Virus record (IMG/VR): IMGVR_UViG_3300034062_002410
Location: 1-64,000 of that record
Direction: 5' to 3' (one strand)
Length of the DNA stretch: 64,000 nucleotides
Source of the DNA: a virus
Shown here: positions 44,813 to 57,985 of the stretch, one piece after another
Position numbering within the stretch: the first letter of the stretch is position 1
How the letters are laid out: each line of letters opens with the position of its first letter
Made by a program: the position numbers and the translations under genes
The notes under the pieces: model-generated
Seen by the model: only the letters and a program-made list of their open reading frames with translations
Databases searched by the model: none
What the model was told of the DNA's origin: nothing

Positions 44813-45676
44813 TTAAAAAATGTAACGAATTTTATTCCAAGGTATTATCTCATCATGTAGTTTTACAAAATCAGATATGTATCTATTCTTTAACTGCCAT
44901 TTATATCTAATGTTTTTAGAACCATAAGATGATACTTTATCTTCTTGTACTTCAGGATTCCATAACAATTCTTCTACTTTAGGATTATGTTCTAAATTAT
45001 ATTCATGCATACTTTTATTATGAGTTAGCATAATACATTCTGCAAGTATATCATTTTTAATTTTATCATCCACATAGTAATCAATCTTTTTAAACAAATC
45101 TTCATATAAAAATTTAGCTCCAGGAATAATTATAATAGGACTAAAATTAATATGAACATCATAACCTGCATAGTAGAAATCATTTATAGCTTCAATTCTT
45201 TCTGAAATTAATGAAGTGTTTGGTTCTAATATATCTGAAAGTTTTTGTGGCATTAGTGAAAATCTAATCCTAATCTTTTTATCAGGATTGTAATCTAACA
45301 ACTTATCATTTACATATTTAGTTGCAAATGTACCCATTATAGGTAAATCAGATTGAGTAAAGAAATCAAATATCTTTTCCCAATCGTGGTACTTAGCATG
45401 TAGTGCAAAATCTTCATTACAAGAAATATCATAAGTCCATAAATCTTCATGTGTTTGATTAGGTATTTTAACACCTAATCTTTGAGCATGATTATATACA
45501 GTCTGTAATATTTCATCAGTATTTGTAGCTATTGATATACCTTCAGGCTTATTTCTTCTCATATAACAATAACCACATTTAAATAAACAACCATGAATAA
45601 AAGAAGGAGTAATGTAATCACTACTCCTTCCTGATGGTTTTATATCTAATGCTTTTCTAACTGTTTGAGTTATCAT
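44813..45676 (-). CDS. spore photoproduct lyase (SplB)-like radical SAM protein
   Basis: CLFKCGYC (CxxxCxxC) cluster motif, a further Cys in YDISCNED, plus ATKYVN, RIRFSL and C-terminal IRY...YIF motifs. Confidence 0.8.
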   Translation of the reverse strand: MITQTVRKALDIKPSGRSSDYITPSFIHGCLFKCGYCYMRRNKPEGISIATNTDEILQTVYNHAQRLGVKIPNQTHEDLWTYDISCNEDFALHAKYHDWEKIFDFFTQSDLPIMGTFATKYVNDKLLDYNPDKKIRIRFSLMPQKLSDILEPNTSLISERIEAINDFYYAGYDVHINFSPIIIIPGAKFLYEDLFKKIDYYVDDKIKNDILAECIMLTHNKSMHEYNLEHNPKVEELLWNPEVQEDKVSSYGSKNIRYKWQLKNRYISDFVKLHDEIIPWNKIRYIF

Positions 45677-49101: not shown

Positions 49102-49453
49102 AAACTAATTTTAATAATGTGAAAAAATCCTCAAAAGTCATAGTTACCAATGAACTATAATCATCCCTTTTCTTTCCTGGTTTACCTTGCTTATGATGTA
49201 TAAGCACTTTAGGAAATTGTTCTGAAAGTTTAGGAAGCTTAGTATCAATGTTCTTTAAGACCTCTTCAGGTTTCATTCCTTTATGTACTCCTGCTTTAAT
49301 TTGTACAAGTAAAGGAATATTTGCTAAATCTACTCCACCATCATCTAACATTCTTGATGCATATCTGCTTGTTTGACAATCAGGGAATAATTCCTTAAAC
49401 TTTTGGGCATAAAACCTTTCAGCGTTATGCCCTTTGTTTCTATTTTGATTCAT
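49085..49453 (-). CDS. small PD-(D/E)XK nuclease, Holliday junction resolvase-like
   Basis: RNKGHNAER...GVDL...VQIK motif pattern. Confidence 0.65.
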   Translation of the reverse strand: MNQNRNKGHNAERFYAQKFKELFPDCQTSRYASRMLDDGGVDLANIPLLVQIKAGVHKGMKPEEVLKNIDTKLPKLSEQFPKVLIHHKQGKPGKKRDDYSSLVTMTFEDFFTLLKLVYDNKK

Positions 49454-49928
49454 TAATAACTAGTTGTAATTTATCCTGTGATACAATGTAGGTGTCAACA
49501 TACTTACTCAAAGATAAGAGATAATTCATAATTTTAGAATACTTTTTATCAGCTACATATTTCTTATCAATATATAATGCTAAACAAGAATTTCTATAAT
49601 ACTGATACTCTCTTAACTTGATAAAATATTGCTTCTTGTGTTTATTAACTACTTGAGCTACTATATTTAATGTTAAAGAATCAACTATAATGCCTTTAGT
49701 AATAAACAAATCTTCTTTTGGTAAATAAGCTACTTTAGGAGTAGTTGTAAAAAATGCTGTTAATACTTTATCAGTAGATGTTTTATTAGCTTTTACTAAA
49801 TAAATAGTTGTGCCATTATTTCCATTAATGTTATTTGCACTACTAAAAAACTTATCTATATAAATTGTACTACCACTTACATAAGTATCATATCTTGGAA
49901 ATATAACATTGAAATCATCGTGCTTCAT
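49440..49928 (-). CDS. hypothetical protein overlapping the E1 gene
   Basis: 162 aa; overlaps the E1 gene by 14 nt and the downstream nuclease gene by 14 nt. Confidence 0.6.
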   Translation of the reverse strand: MKHDDFNVIFPRYDTYVSGSTIYIDKFFSSANNINGNNGTTIYLVKANKTSTDKVLTAFFTTTPKVAYLPKEDLFITKGIIVDSLTLNIVAQVVNKHKKQYFIKLREYQYYRNSCLALYIDKKYVADKKYSKIMNYLLSLSKYVDTYIVSQDKLQLVINESK

Positions 49929-50673
49929 AATTTTCAGTTAGTTTATTGAATGGTATAATGTAATCCCACATATAAGGAATCTTGAATACATTATCATCCC
50001 ACTCTGTAACATTAGAAATAATGTTTGTGACAAAACCTGTAATATGAGTAGCAATCATAGCTGCACCATGAGATACTTGTTTCATTGTACACATTAAATC
50101 TTCAACATCTGAATCTGCAAATAAATGATTATCAATATAATCCATATGAAACTGTTGATTATCACCAGGAATACAATAAATTCTCATTTGTTCCATCAAT
50201 AATCTACCATCTACAAACCAAATTTTATCTGGAGTTACAGAAGAATATTCATTGTTACAAACAGCAAGAAACTTTTCAAATAATAATTTTCTAGCTTCCA
50301 TATTGTCAAATGCAGAAATAATTATGATTGGAGATTCTCTACTTGCATAACCTCCTCTGGTATTAATCAAATTATATAGATTAGTTTCTTGAACAAGTTT
50401 CTCATTTCTATATGTAAATGAATAATCATTATCGTTAAATAAAGCAATAGTATTATGCAAAGCAATAACTTTAGATTCACCTATATCCTGATGTAAAAAC
50501 ATTTGTCCACCAAGATTATGTTCTTCTACTAAGTCATAATCTACACTTAATACATTAAAACCTGCTCTTGTTAAAAAGAAACTTGTCCAAGAACCTATAC
50601 CACCTGCACCAAATACTAATATTCTTGCTGGCTTGTTATACCACAATGCATCTTTGAACCTATCTTTACTCAT
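49915..50673 (-). CDS. ThiF/MoeB/E1-like adenylating enzyme
   Basis: GAGGIG nucleotide-binding loop, DYDLVEEHNLGGQ, SAFDNMEARK, VDGR and a candidate catalytic Cys in DLMCTMKQ. Confidence 0.9.
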   Translation of the reverse strand: MSKDRFKDALWYNKPARILVFGAGGIGSWTSFFLTRAGFNVLSVDYDLVEEHNLGGQMFLHQDIGESKVIALHNTIALFNDNDYSFTYRNEKLVQETNLYNLINTRGGYASRESPIIIISAFDNMEARKLLFEKFLAVCNNEYSSVTPDKIWFVDGRLLMEQMRIYCIPGDNQQFHMDYIDNHLFADSDVEDLMCTMKQVSHGAAMIATHITGFVTNIISNVTEWDDNVFKIPYMWDYIIPFNKLTENYEAR

Positions 50674-50674
50674 A

Positions 50675-51739
50675 TTACAATGTGTTTTCTTCTGTTAACA
50701 ATTCTATCAATTCACTCAACACAACAAATTCATCAGCACTAAATATTAACTCCTCAATAAACTCTTCCCAAGTATCATCTAATTCAGATTTAAGAATAAA
50801 TGGTTTTCCATAATACTCACCCATCCATTTCTTAAAATTAGATTTTATAGAAGCAGCATAATCATGTAGATTAAAATCTTGAAATTGAGTTACTGAATTT
50901 TCTAAATCTTCTAATGCTTGTTCTAAATTATCATTTGGAACATCCATACCTAATCTTAGAATTTTACAAAACAATGGTTCTGATGCATTAAACAAACTAA
51001 CTCCTTCAGAAGGCATTGCACTTGTATCTTGCCACCAAGTAGCTTCATCAAATAACTCTGTCTGAGTATATTTAGAATTAGATTTAGGTTTATAAAATTC
51101 AATCTTTGGAACAGGTTTAGGCTTGTTAATAGCTGTAAACTGATTTAAGAATGTTTCATCTACATTCCAAGTAGTTTCAGGTAGAACTATTTTACAATTA
51201 TAATTACCTACATATTCATCTTCTTCTGTTGATGATAATGTAGTTATAGAATTATCAATATTTTGAAACTCAAATGTTGTAGGTGTAACTGTTTTAATTC
51301 TAAATGCAATCTTTGCAGAAAACTCATGTCTATTATTTACAATAATACTTAGATAAGGCTTAATGTGTTCAGAGTTTTCTACAACTTCATCTGTATCTGT
51401 ACCTGAAAAGAATGTTTTCATGTTGTGATGTGAATGAAGATGTCCTATCTTTAAATGAAAATAATCTTTTTCCATCATATAAGATAATACTCTTTGGTCA
51501 AAAGAATACTCAGTAAATCCTGCACTACCTTTATCTAATGGAATCATATCCTCCACTTTAATATAGACAGTTTCAGGTTTTGCAAGGTCACCTTCAATTG
51601 AATAAAATGTACAACCACTCCATTCTACTTCATTGATGTAAGAACATAAGTATTGTATCTTTTCCCAAACTAAATGGGATAATTTTACAGGAATTATGTA
51701 CTCAAAATCATACAGTTTCAACTTTTTTATATTTTTCAT
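50675..51739 (-). CDS. JAB/MPN+ metallopeptidase (deubiquitinase-like)
   Basis: N-terminal EWSG glutamate and GHLHSHHNMKTFFSGTD (HxH...SxxD JAMM motif); acidic C-terminal extension. Confidence 0.85.
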   Translation of the reverse strand: MKNIKKLKLYDFEYIIPVKLSHLVWEKIQYLCSYINEVEWSGCTFYSIEGDLAKPETVYIKVEDMIPLDKGSAGFTEYSFDQRVLSYMMEKDYFHLKIGHLHSHHNMKTFFSGTDTDEVVENSEHIKPYLSIIVNNRHEFSAKIAFRIKTVTPTTFEFQNIDNSITTLSSTEEDEYVGNYNCKIVLPETTWNVDETFLNQFTAINKPKPVPKIEFYKPKSNSKYTQTELFDEATWWQDTSAMPSEGVSLFNASEPLFCKILRLGMDVPNDNLEQALEDLENSVTQFQDFNLHDYAASIKSNFKKWMGEYYGKPFILKSELDDTWEEFIEELIFSADEFVVLSELIELLTEENTL

Positions 51740-52931
51740 TTGCTAAATAATTTAGAATTTTATTATAATAATGATTTTCATTCAACTTGTTATAAATATA
51801 ACAAAGTGCTGGTTTAGTAATTTTAACTTCAAAGTTATCAGTTAATGATGCATTAGTTAATATTACAGGTCTTCTAGTTTTTTTAAATAAAACATACTTA
51901 CCTTCAATTTTATATTTCAAATCTACTGAACCAAGTTTGTTTACTACTTCTCCATTAGAATAGATAATAAAACTAAATGGATAACTTGAAAAAGAAAAAC
52001 CAGCTGAAATAAGTAACCCAACTAAAATCTTTTCAAAATAATCATCTTTAAATACTAATTCATTATTAATTAAGAAAATAGCATTCTCTTTAACTAGTCC
52101 ATCTATTAATAAATAAAGATACTTATTGTCAAAACTCCTAGTAATGTACTTAGTCAAATTAAACAATTCAATTACTGATGATTTAACTACTGTATTATCT
52201 GTAAGATATGACATTTTGATATATGGACCACCCTCTAATGACTCATACTGCAAATATGCTTTAAGATTGAGAAGAAATAAGTTAAATACATTTGGTATTT
52301 CTTCTTTATTCTTATTCAATATTTGTTCATATAACATCATCATTGACATAGTAATATCAGTACCTGAACCTAAACAAAAATTAGTAAAACCAACTGTAGC
52401 AGAAGAAGGTAAATGAGAATGACTATAATTCTTTTCAAGTTGTAATTCTGTAAAACTACCTCTCCTACCTAATAATCCTTTGTTATGTATATCACCTTGT
52501 TGAGTAATATGAAATTGTACATACATATCTGTTATGTGAATAGACCTATTAAGTTTATTAGTAACTTTTAATTCAGGATAATGTATTACAACAGTTAATC
52601 TAGGATAATAATGCATTATTTCAAAGTATAAATCACCATTATATGTAGTATTTATATATTCAAAATAGTTAAATGGAATTTTAGCATTAGTTTGATGATT
52701 TAAAATTCCAAAAGTATCAGATAATGCATGTACATTACAATCATAAGATAAATATATATCATAATCATATCCTTGTTTGTCTAACTCAGTTTTAATGATA
52801 TTGTAAAACCAAAATATGCTTGATAAATTTTTATTTAATGTTTTGTAATACAGCAAGTTATTGATTCTGTTTAAATCTACATTACGTTTTTGATTATTTT
52901 GATTATAAAACAATGATGCTATTCCTAACAT
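51708..52931 (-). CDS. prokaryotic E2/UBC-like conjugating enzyme
   Basis: YSHSHLP...FTNFCLGSG resembles the E2 HPN/HPH...C active-site pattern; lies between the Ubl and JAB genes. Confidence 0.65.
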   Translation of the reverse strand: MLGIASLFYNQNNQKRNVDLNRINNLLYYKTLNKNLSSIFWFYNIIKTELDKQGYDYDIYLSYDCNVHALSDTFGILNHQTNAKIPFNYFEYINTTYNGDLYFEIMHYYPRLTVVIHYPELKVTNKLNRSIHITDMYVQFHITQQGDIHNKGLLGRRGSFTELQLEKNYSHSHLPSSATVGFTNFCLGSGTDITMSMMMLYEQILNKNKEEIPNVFNLFLLNLKAYLQYESLEGGPYIKMSYLTDNTVVKSSVIELFNLTKYITRSFDNKYLYLLIDGLVKENAIFLINNELVFKDDYFEKILVGLLISAGFSFSSYPFSFIIYSNGEVVNKLGSVDLKYKIEGKYVLFKKTRRPVILTNASLTDNFEVKITKPALCYIYNKLNENHYYNKILNYLANEKYKKVETV

Positions 52932-52944
52932 ATAGATATAAATT

Positions 52945-52975
52945 AAAAAGAGCCTGATTGTTAGTCAGGCTCTTT
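52945..52975 (-). terminator. terminator/attenuator hairpin between the Ubl and E2 genes
   Basis: Minus strand AAAGAGCCTGACT-AACA-ATCAGGCTCTTTTT. Confidence 0.65.
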
Positions 52976-52989
52976 AGTTAGAAAATAAT

Positions 52990-53637
52990 TTAAATCTTTC
53001 CTTTCATCTTACTAATCCACTCATTTTCTGCATCTGTAAGTAAATCTGACTTTGTATTCATAGACTCACAAATAGTAGCAGCAGATACATGACCATTAAT
53101 AAGGTCAAATGCAAGTTCAAAATCATCTTTTCTTGCTTTATACTCATTACTAAAACGTAATGTATTTATAGCAGATTCTAAAAGGTGAGATTCATCTTCT
53201 TCATCCTCATTGTCATAATTATCTTCAACATACTCTTCTTCATAATCATCATCTTCACTTTCATTTTTCCAAGATAACAAAAGAGCTTCTAACTCATCTT
53301 TAGATTTGTTAGTGTAGTTTTTGTTACCTGCATTAAAATGCTCGTGTGCAGCTTTTTTGTCATCTTCAAATGCTTGTTTGATTTGTAGTCTTATCTCACT
53401 ATAAGATAATCCACCACTCTTAGTTTTCTTAGGAGCTAGCATTAGTACAAATTCGCCATCAGGAAGAACAGCTTCATCTAACTCTAAGTTAGAATTGTTT
53501 TTGTTCTCTACTGCTGTCATATCAGATACTGAATAACCTTTATTAGTCAATTCATTTTTAAGTTGACCCCAGTTAGTTGCATTAGAGTCTACTACTGCGA
53601 TACCTGTTGCAGTAGAATAAATTTTAATTTTTCTCAT
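52990..53637 (-). CDS. ubiquitin-like (beta-grasp) protein precursor with C-terminal extension
   Basis: Residues 1-76 follow a strand-strand-helix-strand pattern (RKIKIYS; IAVVDS; TNWGQLKNEL; FVLMLAP) and end KKTKSGG; a helical and acidic tail follows. Confidence 0.65.
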   Translation of the reverse strand: MRKIKIYSTATGIAVVDSNATNWGQLKNELTNKGYSVSDMTAVENKNNSNLELDEAVLPDGEFVLMLAPKKTKSGGLSYSEIRLQIKQAFEDDKKAAHEHFNAGNKNYTNKSKDELEALLLSWKNESEDDDYEEEYVEDNYDNEDEEDESHLLESAINTLRFSNEYKARKDDFELAFDLINGHVSAATICESMNTKSDLLTDAENEWISKMKGKI

Positions 53638-53649
53638 TGTCTTAATAGT

Positions 53650-54624
53650 TTAAAATAAAAAATTGATTAATTCTTGTTTTTTTCCTGCTTTAATAATGTC
53701 TGCAGGATCTTTTTCATCAAATGGTAATACTACACTTATAGCTTTAGAACTATAATGATTGTTAATATATTTTACTACTTTGTTAGATGCAGGTATACCA
53801 GCTTTATCATTGTCAAATAATACTATTACTTGATTAAATACTGAAATATACATTGATAATATTGATATATCAGGTAACATACCTTCATTTTGAAAATATA
53901 TAGCATCTTTACCAAGATTAGTTAACACTCTCCAATCTTTATAACTCTTAGTTATATATAATGTATCACCTACAAATGGAAGATTCTTTGTACCACCAAT
54001 AGTATTTTTAGTAGTATTAGTTATCCATTTATATTCTTTAGATTTTGGCTTACATATTTTAATACCTTCACTTTTATATGAAATAGTGTAGGTAGTTTCT
54101 TGTGGAAAAGGTGTAAATATGTTTCCATTAACTTTAAACCATTTGGTAGCAAATATATTATCTGCTATAAGTTGGGAACTTGTTATCTCATATTGTGACC
54201 AATATGTTTTATGATAATCATCAAATGGCTTAGGACAAAACTCTAACAATTTAGATGAAGATGTGGTAGATACAATGGATTGTGATTGTGATTTATAATC
54301 TACATATTCTGATTTACCTTTAAATGAATTGTTATCCATTATATAAGTTATAGCATCTTTTAATGATAAGTTATAATACTCTTGTATTATACCAATAGCA
54401 TCTAAATTTACTACACCATAAGTACTTGCAAAATCAGTAAAATATAATTTACCATTTCTCCATTGTATCCAACATCCAGGGCTATCATCAATTCTAAAAG
54501 GACTTTTTATATATACATTAGTTTCAAATTGACCAAAAACATGATTAAATATTTGTTCTTGGTTAATGTATTTAAATACATCTTCTATTGATGAAAATGT
54601 AAAATCATCTTGATAGCCATACAT
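53650..54624 (-). CDS. DnaG-family primase (crAss-like)
   Basis: SPFRIDDSPGC N-terminal region; TOPRIM motifs ITKSYKD, FDNDKAG and KDPAD. Confidence 0.85.
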   Translation of the reverse strand: MYGYQDDFTFSSIEDVFKYINQEQIFNHVFGQFETNVYIKSPFRIDDSPGCWIQWRNGKLYFTDFASTYGVVNLDAIGIIQEYYNLSLKDAITYIMDNNSFKGKSEYVDYKSQSQSIVSTTSSSKLLEFCPKPFDDYHKTYWSQYEITSSQLIADNIFATKWFKVNGNIFTPFPQETTYTISYKSEGIKICKPKSKEYKWITNTTKNTIGGTKNLPFVGDTLYITKSYKDWRVLTNLGKDAIYFQNEGMLPDISILSMYISVFNQVIVLFDNDKAGIPASNKVVKYINNHYSSKAISVVLPFDEKDPADIIKAGKKQELINFLF

Positions 54625-55494: not shown

Positions 55495-55521
55495 AAAAAG
55501 GGAAAAGGGTTACTTTTCCCT
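55495..55521 (-). terminator. terminator-like hairpin
   Basis: AGGGAAAAG-TAACC-CTTTTCCCT followed by TTTT on the minus strand. Confidence 0.55.
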
Positions 55522-55915: not shown

Positions 55916-56620
55916 TTATTCTCCTTCATAATATTTGTTTACTTGTTTAATTACATAACCTAAGTCATTTGGAATATAGAGTGAAAACATACCTGCTGCA
56001 GATTTAGCAGGATATCTACCATCAAAGTTTGTGACAAATTGCTTAATAGCTTTTTTATTCTTTGAATCAAAATCTTGAGTGCCATAAAGGACAATGTCAA
56101 ACTTACCCTCTAATGAAATATATTGGTCAATCATTTTGCCAACAGTTTTGGCTTTATATGAAGTACCAAAAGTATTTTGAATTTCCTCAGGATGAGTAAG
56201 CACTATTACATTGCCTTTAAACTTCTGTATTGCTTTAAAGATTTGACCAATGAAATAGCCAATGTCAGAAAATTTATCAAAGCCACTAGTCTTGGCTTTA
56301 TCCATATAATAATCTGCCATTAGATATTGAAAATCATCAATTACTAAGTTCTTAATCTCAGGTTTTTTATCATTAAGAATACCAATAAGACCTGCTATTG
56401 CCATACCATCATTAGTATCTACATAATTACCAGTAGATAAATCTTTACCTTCTATTGCTTTATAAAGTTTCTTCCAACCTCTTGATGGAAAATCTTTACC
56501 ACTTACATTTACAATAAAAGTTTCTTTAGGGTCTAAACCCTTAATTCCAAGTTCCTCACTTGGGCAGATAGCAGTACTTTTGCCGAAACCTGATTCAGCA
56601 ATTACCATAATTTTTGCCAT
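55916..56620 (-). CDS. AAA ATPase (AAA_24/Sak4-like)
   Basis: AESGFGKST Walker A, LVIDD Walker B, KTVGKM and EGKFDIVLY motifs. Confidence 0.85.
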   Translation of the reverse strand: MAKIMVIAESGFGKSTAICPSEELGIKGLDPKETFIVNVSGKDFPSRGWKKLYKAIEGKDLSTGNYVDTNDGMAIAGLIGILNDKKPEIKNLVIDDFQYLMADYYMDKAKTSGFDKFSDIGYFIGQIFKAIQKFKGNVIVLTHPEEIQNTFGTSYKAKTVGKMIDQYISLEGKFDIVLYGTQDFDSKNKKAIKQFVTNFDGRYPAKSAAGMFSLYIPNDLGYVIKQVNKYYEGE

Positions 56621-56890: not shown

Positions 56891-57985
56891 TTAAATTGAT
56901 TTAAAATGTTTAATATTACCATACATTTGTACTCCCAAATGCATTGGACACTCAGTATCACGAGATTCTACTAAGTGTATTGACCTATAATTTGGATATT
57001 CATGTAATGGATAACCAAAATGAACTGATAATCCATATTTCTCATCAGTAGGATTAAAAAGAGTTAGTAGGTAATCACATTCTTCTGATAAATTACCTGA
57101 ATCTTTTACATCCTCACCTGTAGGATATATGTACTCACCATTGAATTTTAATCTTTCTATATTAGATATAGACCTGTTTAGATGCACAATATGTACAAAT
57201 GTAAAATGACAGAAGTTTCTGAGTTCTACTGTGTATTCTATCCATTTGTCCATATTCTCTTTCATACTGTAACCTCTTTCTCTCTTGAGTTTACGAATGT
57301 GGTCAGTAATGATAATAGTTCTCTTTTGCTTATTAGCAATGTTGTAACCTATCAATCTTTTCTTAGTAACTTTCTTACCTTCTTCTGTAGTTTCATAATC
57401 TTGATATACAAACTCACCATTCTTTTTAGCATAAGCAAGAATAGTATTTCTCATACCAGTAGGATTATCTCTGTCTTCTAAGAATTGTATTATGCCTTCT
57501 TTTATCTGATGACCTCTATAGTCATATTCACCAAAGAATGGAATTATCCTATTGGTGTATATATCTTGGAGGATAGTTTTATGTTCATCAGATAATGGAA
57601 TGATATTACCTTCTCTGTCTTGTAATTTACCTAACAGATATCTACTTGACAAAGGATACTCTTCATCATTATGATAAATAGATTTTATACCATAGTCATG
57701 ATAAAAGAAGAATGATGCAAAGTCAAATTCTTTTTTGACTCTATCAATCTCATAAGAAAAATAGATTACAGTAATAGGAATGTTTTCTTTAATACAATGT
57801 AATATAGGATGAATAACAAAACCAAAGTCTACTAATGTAGATTTACCAACTTTTGGACCAGCAGCTACACCATAAATAGCTTTCTTTTGAACACCATCTA
57901 TTGCTCTATCCAATGGTGGTAAACCTGTTGGTAATCCTTTATTTTCTCCTTCCTGACCCTGCTTTAATGCCTCAAGGAAATTCAT
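56891..57985 (-). CDS. DnaB-like replicative helicase
   Basis: GLPTGLPPLD, AGPKVGKST, SYEI, IITDH, HLNR and DVKDSG motifs. Confidence 0.9.
   Translation of the reverse strand: MNFLEALKQGQEGENKGLPTGLPPLDRAIDGVQKKAIYGVAAGPKVGKSTLVDFGFVIHPILHCIKENIPITVIYFSYEIDRVKKEFDFASFFFYHDYGIKSIYHNDEEYPLSSRYLLGKLQDREGNIIPLSDEHKTILQDIYTNRIIPFFGEYDYRGHQIKEGIIQFLEDRDNPTGMRNTILAYAKKNGEFVYQDYETTEEGKKVTKKRLIGYNIANKQKRTIIITDHIRKLKRERGYSMKENMDKWIEYTVELRNFCHFTFVHIVHLNRSISNIERLKFNGEYIYPTGEDVKDSGNLSEECDYLLTLFNPTDEKYGLSVHFGYPLHEYPNYRSIHLVESRDTECPMHLGVQMYGNIKHFKSI

Follow-up and report, generated by a model that had tools for sequence, protein, structure and literature searches.

A candidate ubiquitin-like tagging cassette beside the primase gene of crAss-like phages

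Immediately downstream of the DNA primase gene in the IMG/VR virus record IMGVR_UViG_3300034062_002410, from a freshwater crAss-like phage, lies a cassette of four consecutive, co-oriented genes, also found at the same position in a range of other crAss-like phages, which may constitute a phage-borne system in which a ubiquitin-like (Ubl) tag is activated, processed and probably conjugated. The window, meaning the whole stretch of DNA analysed here, is the first 64 kb of this 85,292-bp record, which is rated 92% complete; the same DNA was also met in lake and freshwater metagenomes. On the minus strand, the genes run from a DnaB-like helicase through an AAA_24 ATPase and a DnaG-type primase into the cassette itself, the products of which are a putative tag precursor, a protein with conserved Cys and His residues, a metallopeptidase of the JAB family and an adenylyltransferase resembling the E1 enzymes that activate ubiquitin. 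The features of the cassette, followed by those of its neighbours, are:

52990-53637, minus strand: putative tag precursor, 215 aa; first cassette gene, just 3' of the primase
53413..53637, minus strand: candidate ubiquitin-like tag domain, residues 1-75 of the 215-aa protein, ending K73-S74-G75
52990..53412, minus strand: tail of the tag precursor, residues 76-215; variable linker, conserved helical block, acidic tract and C-terminal helix
52937..52975, minus strand: terminator-like element between the tag gene and the 407-aa gene, with its hairpin and T-run at 52975..52947
51708-52931, minus strand: Cys/His protein, 407 aa (the 'E2' of the original prediction); candidate carrier or transfer enzyme, core residues 105-250
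50675-51739, minus strand: JAMM/MPN+ (JAB) metallopeptidase, 354 aa; catalytic domain residues 1 to ~165
49915-50673, minus strand: ThiF/MoeB-type E1-like adenylyltransferase, 252 aa; single adenylation domain
49440-49928, minus strand: fifth gene, 162 aa; 14-nt overlap with the E1 stop, conserved in position
53650-54624, minus strand: DnaG-type DNA primase (PHROG 12622 DNA primase, 1.1e-46; Toprim_2, 2.7e-4; TIGR01391, 8.3e-8)
55916-56620, minus strand: AAA_24 ATPase, replication-module neighbour
56891-57985, minus strand: DnaB-like helicase, replication-module neighbour

Twelve nucleotides separate the primase stop from the first ATG of the tag gene, the 407-aa gene shares 32 nt with the 354-aa gene, and the 354-aa and 252-aa genes are 1 nt apart. 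The original prediction, made from the letters and open reading frames (ORFs) of the window, had described the four genes with these coordinates and spacings, and the ORF list confirms them; the motifs quoted there are likewise present and conserved, namely KKTKSGG at residues 70-76 of the precursor, HSH (171-173) and FCLG (185-188) in the 407-aa protein, the JAMM motif of the metallopeptidase, and GAGGIG (22-27) and C195 in the E1. Its description of a complete operon needs some qualification: the gene set is tight and co-oriented, but a conserved terminator-like element follows the first gene, and a fifth gene is coupled to the last. Taken as a whole, the interpretation of the locus as a Ubl conjugation operon is partly supported by the analysis below.

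The 252-aa protein can be firmly identified, from its family matches and motifs, as a minimal, single-domain E1 of ThiF/MoeB size with the features of the superfamily, and not an E1 of the multi-domain type found in the Bil anti-phage systems. It matches the Pfam family ThiF (PF00899) at 4e-16, scoring 59.3 bits against a cut-off of 28.1, and the closest named families, those of ThiF sulfur-carrier adenylyltransferases, were found in NCBIfam (PRK08644, 7.6e-20; TIGR02354, 1.6e-13). Searched against PDB profiles, the family recovered UBA5 (1.6e-13), MccB (6.1e-11) and PaaA (7.3e-11), as well as UBA6, UBA1, NAE, ThiF and MoeB. The Rossmann motif begins at residue 22, where the ATP-site motif reads G22-x-G24-G25-x-G27. 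Thirteen cassette E1s have in common R5, G22-x-G24-G25, D45, D47, N53, Q57, K68, D123, R128 and C195. In an alignment with MoeB and ThiF of E. coli and four ThiF proteins from the plasmid PRTRC cassette, which is compared below, D123 occupies the column of MoeB D130 and ThiF D127, and R128 that of MoeB R135. The candidate catalytic Cys of this protein is C195, invariant in 13 of 13 sequences and aligned with C187 of MoeB and C184 of ThiF from E. coli, which we take to be the crossover-loop cysteines at the thioester or acyl-disulfide position. The Zn-binding CxxC pairs of the MoeB and ThiF rows are absent from the cassette E1s. In PADLOC, 22 'E1-E2' models match this protein, in its Rossmann region only; the other three cassette proteins had no match there. 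The E1s of gut Steigviridae-type phages (L002:6545-7702, which is crAss001 Gp76, and the loci L003 and L004) have an additional ~50-150 residues at the N terminus, missing in the window phage and FpV4.

Equally firm, at the level of the predicted protein, is the identification of the 354-aa product as a JAMM/MPN+ peptidase of active appearance. The full JAMM motif that had been noticed in this third gene takes the form E39...H102-x-H104-x7-S112-x2-D115, with E39, H102, H104, S112 and D115 invariant in 15 of 15 sequences, and the family profile matches CSN5 over the motif region (0.004). The Pfam Prok-JAB match is a weak one (0.008; 16.5 bits, below the cut-off of 25). PRTRC_A was weakly matched in 11 of the 15 members, and an hhalign comparison with an alignment of PRTRC protein A gave 68.6% probability (E 4.6e-5). 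The C-terminal ~190 aa have no match to any known family.

The 215-aa protein encoded by the first gene has a sequence that fits a tag precursor. All 61 of the distinct relatives compared have the motif P-x-K-[TIV]-K-S-G at the end of the N-terminal domain; the residue after it varies, and a linker of varying length comes next. K73, S74 and G75 are invariant, S74 and G75 being among only five invariant positions of residues 1-76 across 17 of 17 diverse loci; since residue 76 may be G, A, S, N, K, T or V among relatives, a processed tag would end in one Gly and not in GG. The KKTKSGG ending originally proposed for the tag is thus present, but its double Gly occurs only in the lineage of the window, the conserved residue being the single G75. 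Stand-alone forms of the domain are found in two contigs. In one, binned as Chitinophagales (L036), the tag homologue is 82 aa long and a separate, unrelated-looking ORF of 77 aa runs from its stop codon (L036:3993-4474); in the other, binned as an archaeon (L037), it is 90 aa long and lacks a tail, with 99 nt containing a hairpin between it and the next gene (L037:4198-4570). Both stop one residue past the Gly, hence the domain boundary lies at this residue. Both also came from genome-contig loci, a word-indexed protein search having returned no tag homologues shorter than 118 aa. A conserved C-terminal Gly on a domain of ~70-80 aa, either exposed or bearing an extension of a removable type, is a property of Ubl modifiers, and the phage domain shares the conserved Gly at its end.

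The tail of the precursor is conserved from the window phage to crAss001, containing an H-F-N..G-K-N-Y-T block and the nearly invariant residues N107, T109, L116 and E204, and is probably functional where present. The only family matched by the 215-aa protein is PHROG 15560, which has no function assigned to it there. In the ESM Atlas, two ubiquitin-like clusters are among the structural neighbours of the model of this protein (pLDDT, the predicted local distance difference test, 0.58), with template modelling (TM) scores of 0.35-0.36 over residues 1-134; the feature matches, at 0.83-0.84, fall under the meaningful level, so that the structure rows alone offer a weak lead towards a beta-grasp fold for the N-terminal domain. 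A match to a designed Kelch repeat protein (1.1e-4) was rejected as a repeat artefact, amounting to 2.8 bits per stretch.

The second gene encodes a 407-aa protein that we regard as a candidate carrier of the tag, because it has an invariant Cys, is always positioned between the tag and JAB genes in the loci compared, and is encoded by a gene overlapping that of the JAB protein, the overlap ranging from 4 to 158 nt across the 19 distinct loci, all of which have it. Its family is large, with 3378 representatives at E<=1e-3 and 2552 at E<=1e-30 in a library of 1.84 billion proteins; as the matches listed were the best 150 full-length members of the 3378, that search could not bridge the family to others. 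The core motifs are Y169-x-H171-S172-H173, C186-x-G188 and E230-S231..G234-x-P236, within which all 148 representatives aligned share H171, S172, H173, C186, G188, E230, S231 and G234. The original prediction took the HSH...FCLG pattern to mark an E2 conjugating enzyme; the pattern stands, and an invariant Cys with a His 13-15 positions upstream does look E2-like, though a Cys with a nearby His is not specific to E2s, and homology to any E2 family was not detected. Alignment with hhalign places the H-L-P....F-C-L-G-S-G of the phage family over the ..P..N....C-x-G-S of PRTRC_B, the latter represented by ten sequences, two of them confirmed as Pfam Prok-E2_D (3.2e-51 and 1.2e-29); this was the best of the comparisons made with that query, although below significance, as detailed later. 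PHROG 15310 is matched, with no function assigned there, and the ESM Atlas model has a pLDDT of 0.30 and meaningless neighbours. Peptidases of clans CD and CE, sortase and L,D-transpeptidase were considered for this protein and rejected on motif spacing only.

The arrangement of these genes is widely conserved. A tblastn search with the E1 found 74 phage records, comprising Flavobacterium FpV-type phages, Bacteroides crAss001-like phages and DAC15, and uncultured crAss-like phages. The order primase, tag, 407-aa protein, JAB, E1 is found in 16 IMG/VR loci, fetched using the E1 and with neighbours judged where the contig was long enough, in four GenBank phages and in nine of ten contigs from metagenome-assembled genomes (MAGs) of a species-genome collection; the E1 match of the tenth is weak only. 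Recurrence in all fetched loci of sufficient length indicates that this order is not a matter of chance, and the synteny holds in crAss001, DAC15 and FpV4 as well as in metagenomic relatives. The cassette corresponds to Gp79-Gp76 in crAss001, to genes 91-88 in DAC15 and to gp53-gp50 in FpV4, where a uracil-DNA glycosylase (UDG) gene is inserted after the primase; a rodent-gut virus likewise has the primase and then the same four genes. In the GenBank phages, existing names are limited to those of the E1, called 'thiamine biosynthesis protein' or 'E1 enzyme family protein', and of the JAB protein Gp77 of crAss001, called 'metalloprotease domain'. MAG contigs with the cassette also hold phage replication genes, hence no clearly cellular copy was seen. 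One of these contigs (L034; DASYBV010000020.1, 282285-296950 of 373,651 bp, from a bin assigned to Puia sp., Chitinophagaceae) has the full cassette within a crAss-like replication module that includes a DnaB-like helicase, a primase, an exonuclease and a DNA polymerase; this module may have been integrated there, or may reflect chimeric assembly or mis-binning.

The window has, between its tag and 407-aa genes, a hairpin with an 11-bp stem, containing five G-C pairs, and a T-run; it starts 14 nt past the tag stop, and the T-run ends 16 nt before the next ATG. Folding of the same gap with RNAfold revealed hairpins and T-runs in FpV4, crAss001, DAC15 and most metagenomic relatives, with sequences that differ between lineages. 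Of the 19 distinct loci, 13 contain such a structure according to a detector permitting G-U pairs and one mismatch, where its background of 0.233 per kb on the coding strand would give 0.42; one restricted to perfect stems found it in eight, and the two pooled in 15. The hairpin of L037, which has a long branched loop, was seen with RNAfold only and missed by both detectors, and in three other loci, which lack a site, the two genes overlap, are only 8 nt apart or have an extra ORF between them. A scan for sigma-70 promoters gave results at the level of chance (52 found, 51.7 expected), and the Bacteroidota-type -7 motif TAnnTTTG was not enriched (92, with 118 expected), none lying between the hairpin and the 407-aa start. 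We infer that the tag gene closes a primase-tag transcription unit and that the enzymes are expressed by read-through, so that more tag than enzyme would be made. A second terminator-like hairpin, at 55499-55521, is palindromic, can be read on both strands and lies upstream of a gene for a 261-aa protein and of the primase; together with that at 52975..52947, it would bracket a three-gene unit of the 261-aa protein, the primase and the tag.

Cassette genes overlap or abut in every locus, and the coupling continues past the E1. A fifth, co-oriented ORF of 148-362 aa starts between -60 and +200 nt from the end of the E1 gene in 29 of 30 loci. These copies form ten groups, between which hhalign gave P 0.004-0.008 and a best probability of 8.8%, and a jackhmmer search from the fifth gene of the window reached 11 of the 29 positional partners, hence homology across lineages is not established; the gene is conserved by position and fast-evolving. 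It has no Pfam, NCBIfam or PHROG match. Further 3' of the cassette are more ORFs of replication or recombination type, a glucosaminidase, and, 4 kb downstream in the same strand block, a gene (44813-45676, minus strand) for a 287-aa radical S-adenosylmethionine (SAM) protein of the spore photoproduct lyase family (Pfam SPL, 6.3e-27).

Our preferred explanation for these features, held with moderate confidence, is that the cassette is a phage system, embedded in the replication module, that activates, processes and probably conjugates a Ubl tag. The 215-aa precursor would be made with its ~75-aa tag domain, ending K-S-G, joined to the tail; the JAMM peptidase would then cut past G75, giving a free Gly carboxylate. 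The ThiF-type E1, probably acting as a homodimer like ThiF and MoeB, would adenylate this Gly and may load the tag onto its Cys195. From there the tag would pass to Cys186 of the 407-aa protein, which would serve as both carrier and ligase, attaching it to lysines of phage or host proteins, and the JAMM enzyme could also take it off again. Throughout, the hairpin behind the tag gene would hold the supply of tag above that of the enzymes. The scheme builds on what the sequences show, namely the identities and catalytic motifs of the E1 and JAB proteins, the Gly at which the tag domain ends, the invariant Cys and His residues of the 407-aa protein, the close coupling of the genes and their synteny; the lack of sulfur-pathway partners and the recurrent hairpin also speak for it.

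Several observations weigh against this explanation. None of 54 members of the 407-aa family matches Pfam Prok-E2 or UQ_con, even with the limit relaxed to E<=1, and the family has no match to NCBIfam in the same 54 members or to PADLOC, and none to PDB profiles with alignments of 54, 148 or 18 sequences, the last restricted to the core. The hhalign comparison with the Prok-E2_D alignment spans 13-21 columns at 1.4-2.1% probability (P 0.023-0.036), and is not significant. Classical E2s have a fixed spacing between the HPN motif and the Cys; the length of the loop from H-S-H to the Cys in the phage family varies, unlike this. The tag, for its part, has no sequence or profile similarity to Prok_Ub, ThiS, MoaD or any solved Ubl in searches with Pfam, NCBIfam, PDB profiles and hhalign, and the Atlas model of it is of low confidence. 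The conserved tail may itself be the functional product, with the N-terminal domain merely a pro-domain. Finally, the terminator-like element could put the tag gene in the transcription unit of the primase, and not in that of the enzymes.

Of the alternatives, the one that survives best, whilst still unlikely, is a sulfur-carrier pathway, in which the JAB peptidase would expose the Gly of a ThiS/MoaD-like tag, the E1 would adenylate it and a thiocarboxylate would result, the 407-aa protein using the sulfur during replication, for instance in the thiolation of DNA, tRNA or a nucleotide. Operons combining ThiS/MoaD, JAB and E1 for sulfur transfer feature in the operon survey of Iyer et al. (PMC1779556, cited here from excerpts), but the gene order of the cassette is that of conjugation operons, and a conserved tail of 140 aa on the tag would be unusual. 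Similarly, whilst the named families nearest to the E1 are ThiF sulfur-carrier adenylyltransferases, and its single-domain form, its ThiF/MoeB size and the alignment of its Cys with ThiF C184 are all in keeping with such a role, it lacks a rhodanese domain, and the tag lacks any ThiS, MoaD or Prok_Ub signal. The replication-module setting would suit nucleic-acid modification; however, the absence of sulfur-pathway partners, observed at first for the window, extends to the whole 85-kb record, 92% complete, in which none of five families was matched (rhodanese, cysteine desulfurase, PP-loop ATPase, ThiG and MoaE; 0 of 1 records each, with controls positive in 11-14 of 14 genomes), although the host could supply these.

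Slightly less probable again is maturation or activation without conjugation. The JAB peptidase would in this case free the tail, and perhaps the N-terminal domain, the E1 would make a nucleotide adduct or a cyclised product as do MccB and PaaA, and the 407-aa protein would be an unrelated Cys/His enzyme or a metal-binding partner. Ubiquitin-ribosomal protein fusions undergo similar precursor processing. The E1 profile does have MccB and PaaA among its top matches to solved structures, but MccB has an N-terminal peptide-clamp domain, for which the 252-aa E1, with a Rossmann motif from residue 22, has no equivalent; the Cys at its thioester position is moreover invariant. The conservation of the tail across distant lineages would be accounted for, yet the tail appears dispensable, since it is lacking in L037 and replaced by a separate ORF in L036, whilst the Gly-ending domain and the three enzymes are kept in both. 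The lack of a detectable relationship between the 407-aa protein and E2s also favours this alternative, and the invariant H, H, C and E residues of that protein could equally bind metal.

No more probable is a counter-defence device, independent of replication housekeeping, that strips or out-competes host Ubl marks, whether Bil-like, 6d/PRTRC-like or those of Cap2 in cyclic oligonucleotide-based antiphage signalling systems (CBASS), or else tags and disables defence proteins of the host: Bil does place its Ubl on phage tail proteins, with JAB enzymes reversing such marks (excerpts of PMC10557695 and PMC11601596), and there is a sub-threshold PRTRC_B match in the Bacteroides thetaiotaomicron control genome, but the phage has its own tag and E1, needless for a pure deconjugase, and the fixed place beside the primase in distant crAss-like lineages (gut, freshwater and other), with thousands of representatives of the 407-aa family, is what one would sooner expect of a core function than of an accessory gene against defence.

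Should conjugation of a Ubl tag be the correct reading, a broader and more tentative proposition follows, which we consider possible but rather doubtful: that crAss-like phages, including crAss001, DAC15 and FpV4, use Ubl conjugation as a core part of replication, through a family of Cys carriers or ligases (H-S-H...C-x-G...E-S) not detectably related to known E2s and with the tag dose set by an attenuator, PRTRC being the counterpart on cellular mobile elements. To our knowledge, Ubl conjugation in the bacterial world has so far been shown only for cellular anti-phage systems, namely Bil, Bub and CBASS Cap2/Cap3; a phage-owned set, if true, would reverse this picture. The phage order in which the cassette keeps its place next to the primase counts among its members some of the most abundant viruses of the human gut, and the cassette would raise the tractable question of what a phage must tag in order to replicate. 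If a carrier, the 407-aa protein, with its 3378 representatives and no relatives found, would represent a new enzyme family. The idea is open to testing at the bench, since the cassette is present in phages that are in culture together with their hosts, namely crAss001 (B. intestinalis), DAC15 (B. thetaiotaomicron) and FpV4 (F. psychrophilum). A literature search, with supplementary gene and operon tables outside it, found no paper describing the cassette in crAss-like phages; the main text of Yutin et al. 2021 (PMC7886860) contains no mention of ThiF, ubiquitin, JAB, MPN or metalloprotease, its gene tables being in the supplement and beyond this search. The available excerpt of a preprint (10.64898/2026.03.05.709809) mentions a protein family of gut phages that resembles UBA5 in structure and may be homologous to the ubiquitination-like proteins of bacteria, and contains no description of a cassette.

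By architecture, the nearest known systems are the plasmid PRTRC or '6d' cassette and Bil, but on the features compared the phage cassette is a member of neither, nor of Bub. A more distant parallel exists within phages themselves: in lambdoid and T1 phages, according to excerpts of Iyer et al. 2006 (PMC1779556), TAPI consists of a Ubl with a C-terminal domain and accompanies TAPK, a fusion of JAB and NlpC/P60 in which the JAB part is predicted to cut at the Gly. As in the cassette, a phage Ubl with a conserved C-terminal Gly, a linker and a second domain is encoded alongside a JAB protein; however, TAPI and TAPK come without an E1 or a Cys carrier, and belong to the tail-assembly module and not to the replication module. 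In type I Bub (BubAB/BubCD/BubE, formerly 6E.1), a Ubl-E2 fusion is cut by a JAB-E1 fusion, as set out in excerpts of Ye et al. 2024 (PMC11601596). In both Bub and the cassette, therefore, the tag is, or would be, the N-terminal part of a longer protein, freed by a JAB-family peptidase encoded beside the E1, and the precedent of BubAB/BubCD counts in favour of the 215-aa protein being a precursor. The E1 and E2 of Bub lack a catalytic Cys and form oxyesters instead (PMC11601596), whereas the E1 and 407-aa protein of the phage keep an invariant Cys, and the phage tail is not an E2. Pfam scans of the cassette and its neighbours gave no match to DUF6527 (BubE).

The resemblance to Bil, which is an anti-phage system of two types, I and II, is closer. 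Its gene order is Ubl, E2, deubiquitinase (DUB), E1 (Chambers et al., excerpts of PMC10557695; summarised in PMC11601596), and the tag, Cys protein, JAB and E1 of the cassette follow the same order, bearing out the Ubl-E2-JAB-E1 layout given in the original prediction and counting in favour of conjugation. In type II systems, as many as nine residues come after the conserved Gly of BilA, and BilC removes them (PMC10557695); the phage tag likewise has a Gly and then a non-conserved, variable linker, which argues for its reading as a tag precursor. Neither Bil nor the cassette has an E3 gene, and both have a Cys in the E1 and in the E2 or candidate E2. However, the E1 of Bil is a multi-domain protein (IAD-AAD-CYS), in contrast to the 252 aa and one adenylation domain of the phage E1, and the residues of BilB/CEHH run Cys...Glu...His...His, as opposed to H-x-H...C...E in the 407-aa protein. 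Bil is also situated in a defence island of a cell, whereas the phage cassette is in a replication module and its tag has a conserved tail of 140 aa.

PRTRC (ParB-related, ThiF-related cassette), carried by plasmids and integrative and conjugative elements (ICEs), corresponds to the operon class that Iyer, Burroughs and Aravind (2006) named '6d', composed, in the excerpted text (PMC1779556), of Prok_Ub (protein C), alpha-hel2 (F), Prok-E2_D (B), DUF2016 with Prok-JAB (A) and ThiF. We aligned each of these five proteins from 6-10 plasmid loci and compared the alignments with the four phage families by hhalign, which gave positive results for the E1 and JAB families only. The PRTRC loci (L022, L023 and L026-L033) adjoin genes for ParB, SSB, DNA polymerase III beta, a replication initiator and helicases; three of the ten (L029, L031 and L032) have no separate protein A (JAB) gene listed between B and ThiF, and in L028 the ThiF gene is upstream of protein C. 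The differences from the phage cassette are clear. None of the NCBIfam cut-offs for PRTRC (TIGR03734-03742) is reached by the phage proteins, ThiF scoring 34.5 against 144.75 and protein A 13.6 against 101.8, with no match for B, C, E or F; the tag and the 407-aa protein have no profile similarity to the PRTRC Prok_Ub and Prok-E2_D proteins. The phage JAB protein has a C-terminal domain in place of the DUF2016 N-terminal domain of PRTRC_A, and the phage Cys protein is 407 aa long with its His upstream of the Cys, whereas in the E2-like protein of 6d the His is downstream (Iyer et al., excerpts of PMC1779556). The phage cassette also lacks the ParB, protein E and alpha-hel2 genes of PRTRC, its neighbours being the primase, the DnaB-like helicase and AAA_24.

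Nevertheless, the two have much in common. Both reside on mobile elements next to genes for replication or partition, and both consist of a small, Gly-ended tag, a Cys protein, a JAB protein and a terminal, single-domain ThiF of ~250 aa, with JAB and ThiF genes that overlap or abut. PRTRC protein C ends T/A-K-G, with a C-terminal extension in two of ten copies, as the phage tag has T-K-S-G and then its tail. The Cys of the PRTRC ThiF is in the same aligned column as C195, hhalign gives 99% probability for the E1 beside the 68.6% for the JAB protein, and the Cys motifs of PRTRC_B and of the 407-aa protein are similar in shape, ..P..N....C-x-G-S and H-L-P....F-C-L-G-S-G respectively. Our literature search found no function for PRTRC, which is widespread on plasmids, and the parallel provides a second route to the function of both cassettes. 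Under the broader proposition set out above, the two together would suggest that mobile elements generally employ Ubl tagging to control proteins of replication or partition.

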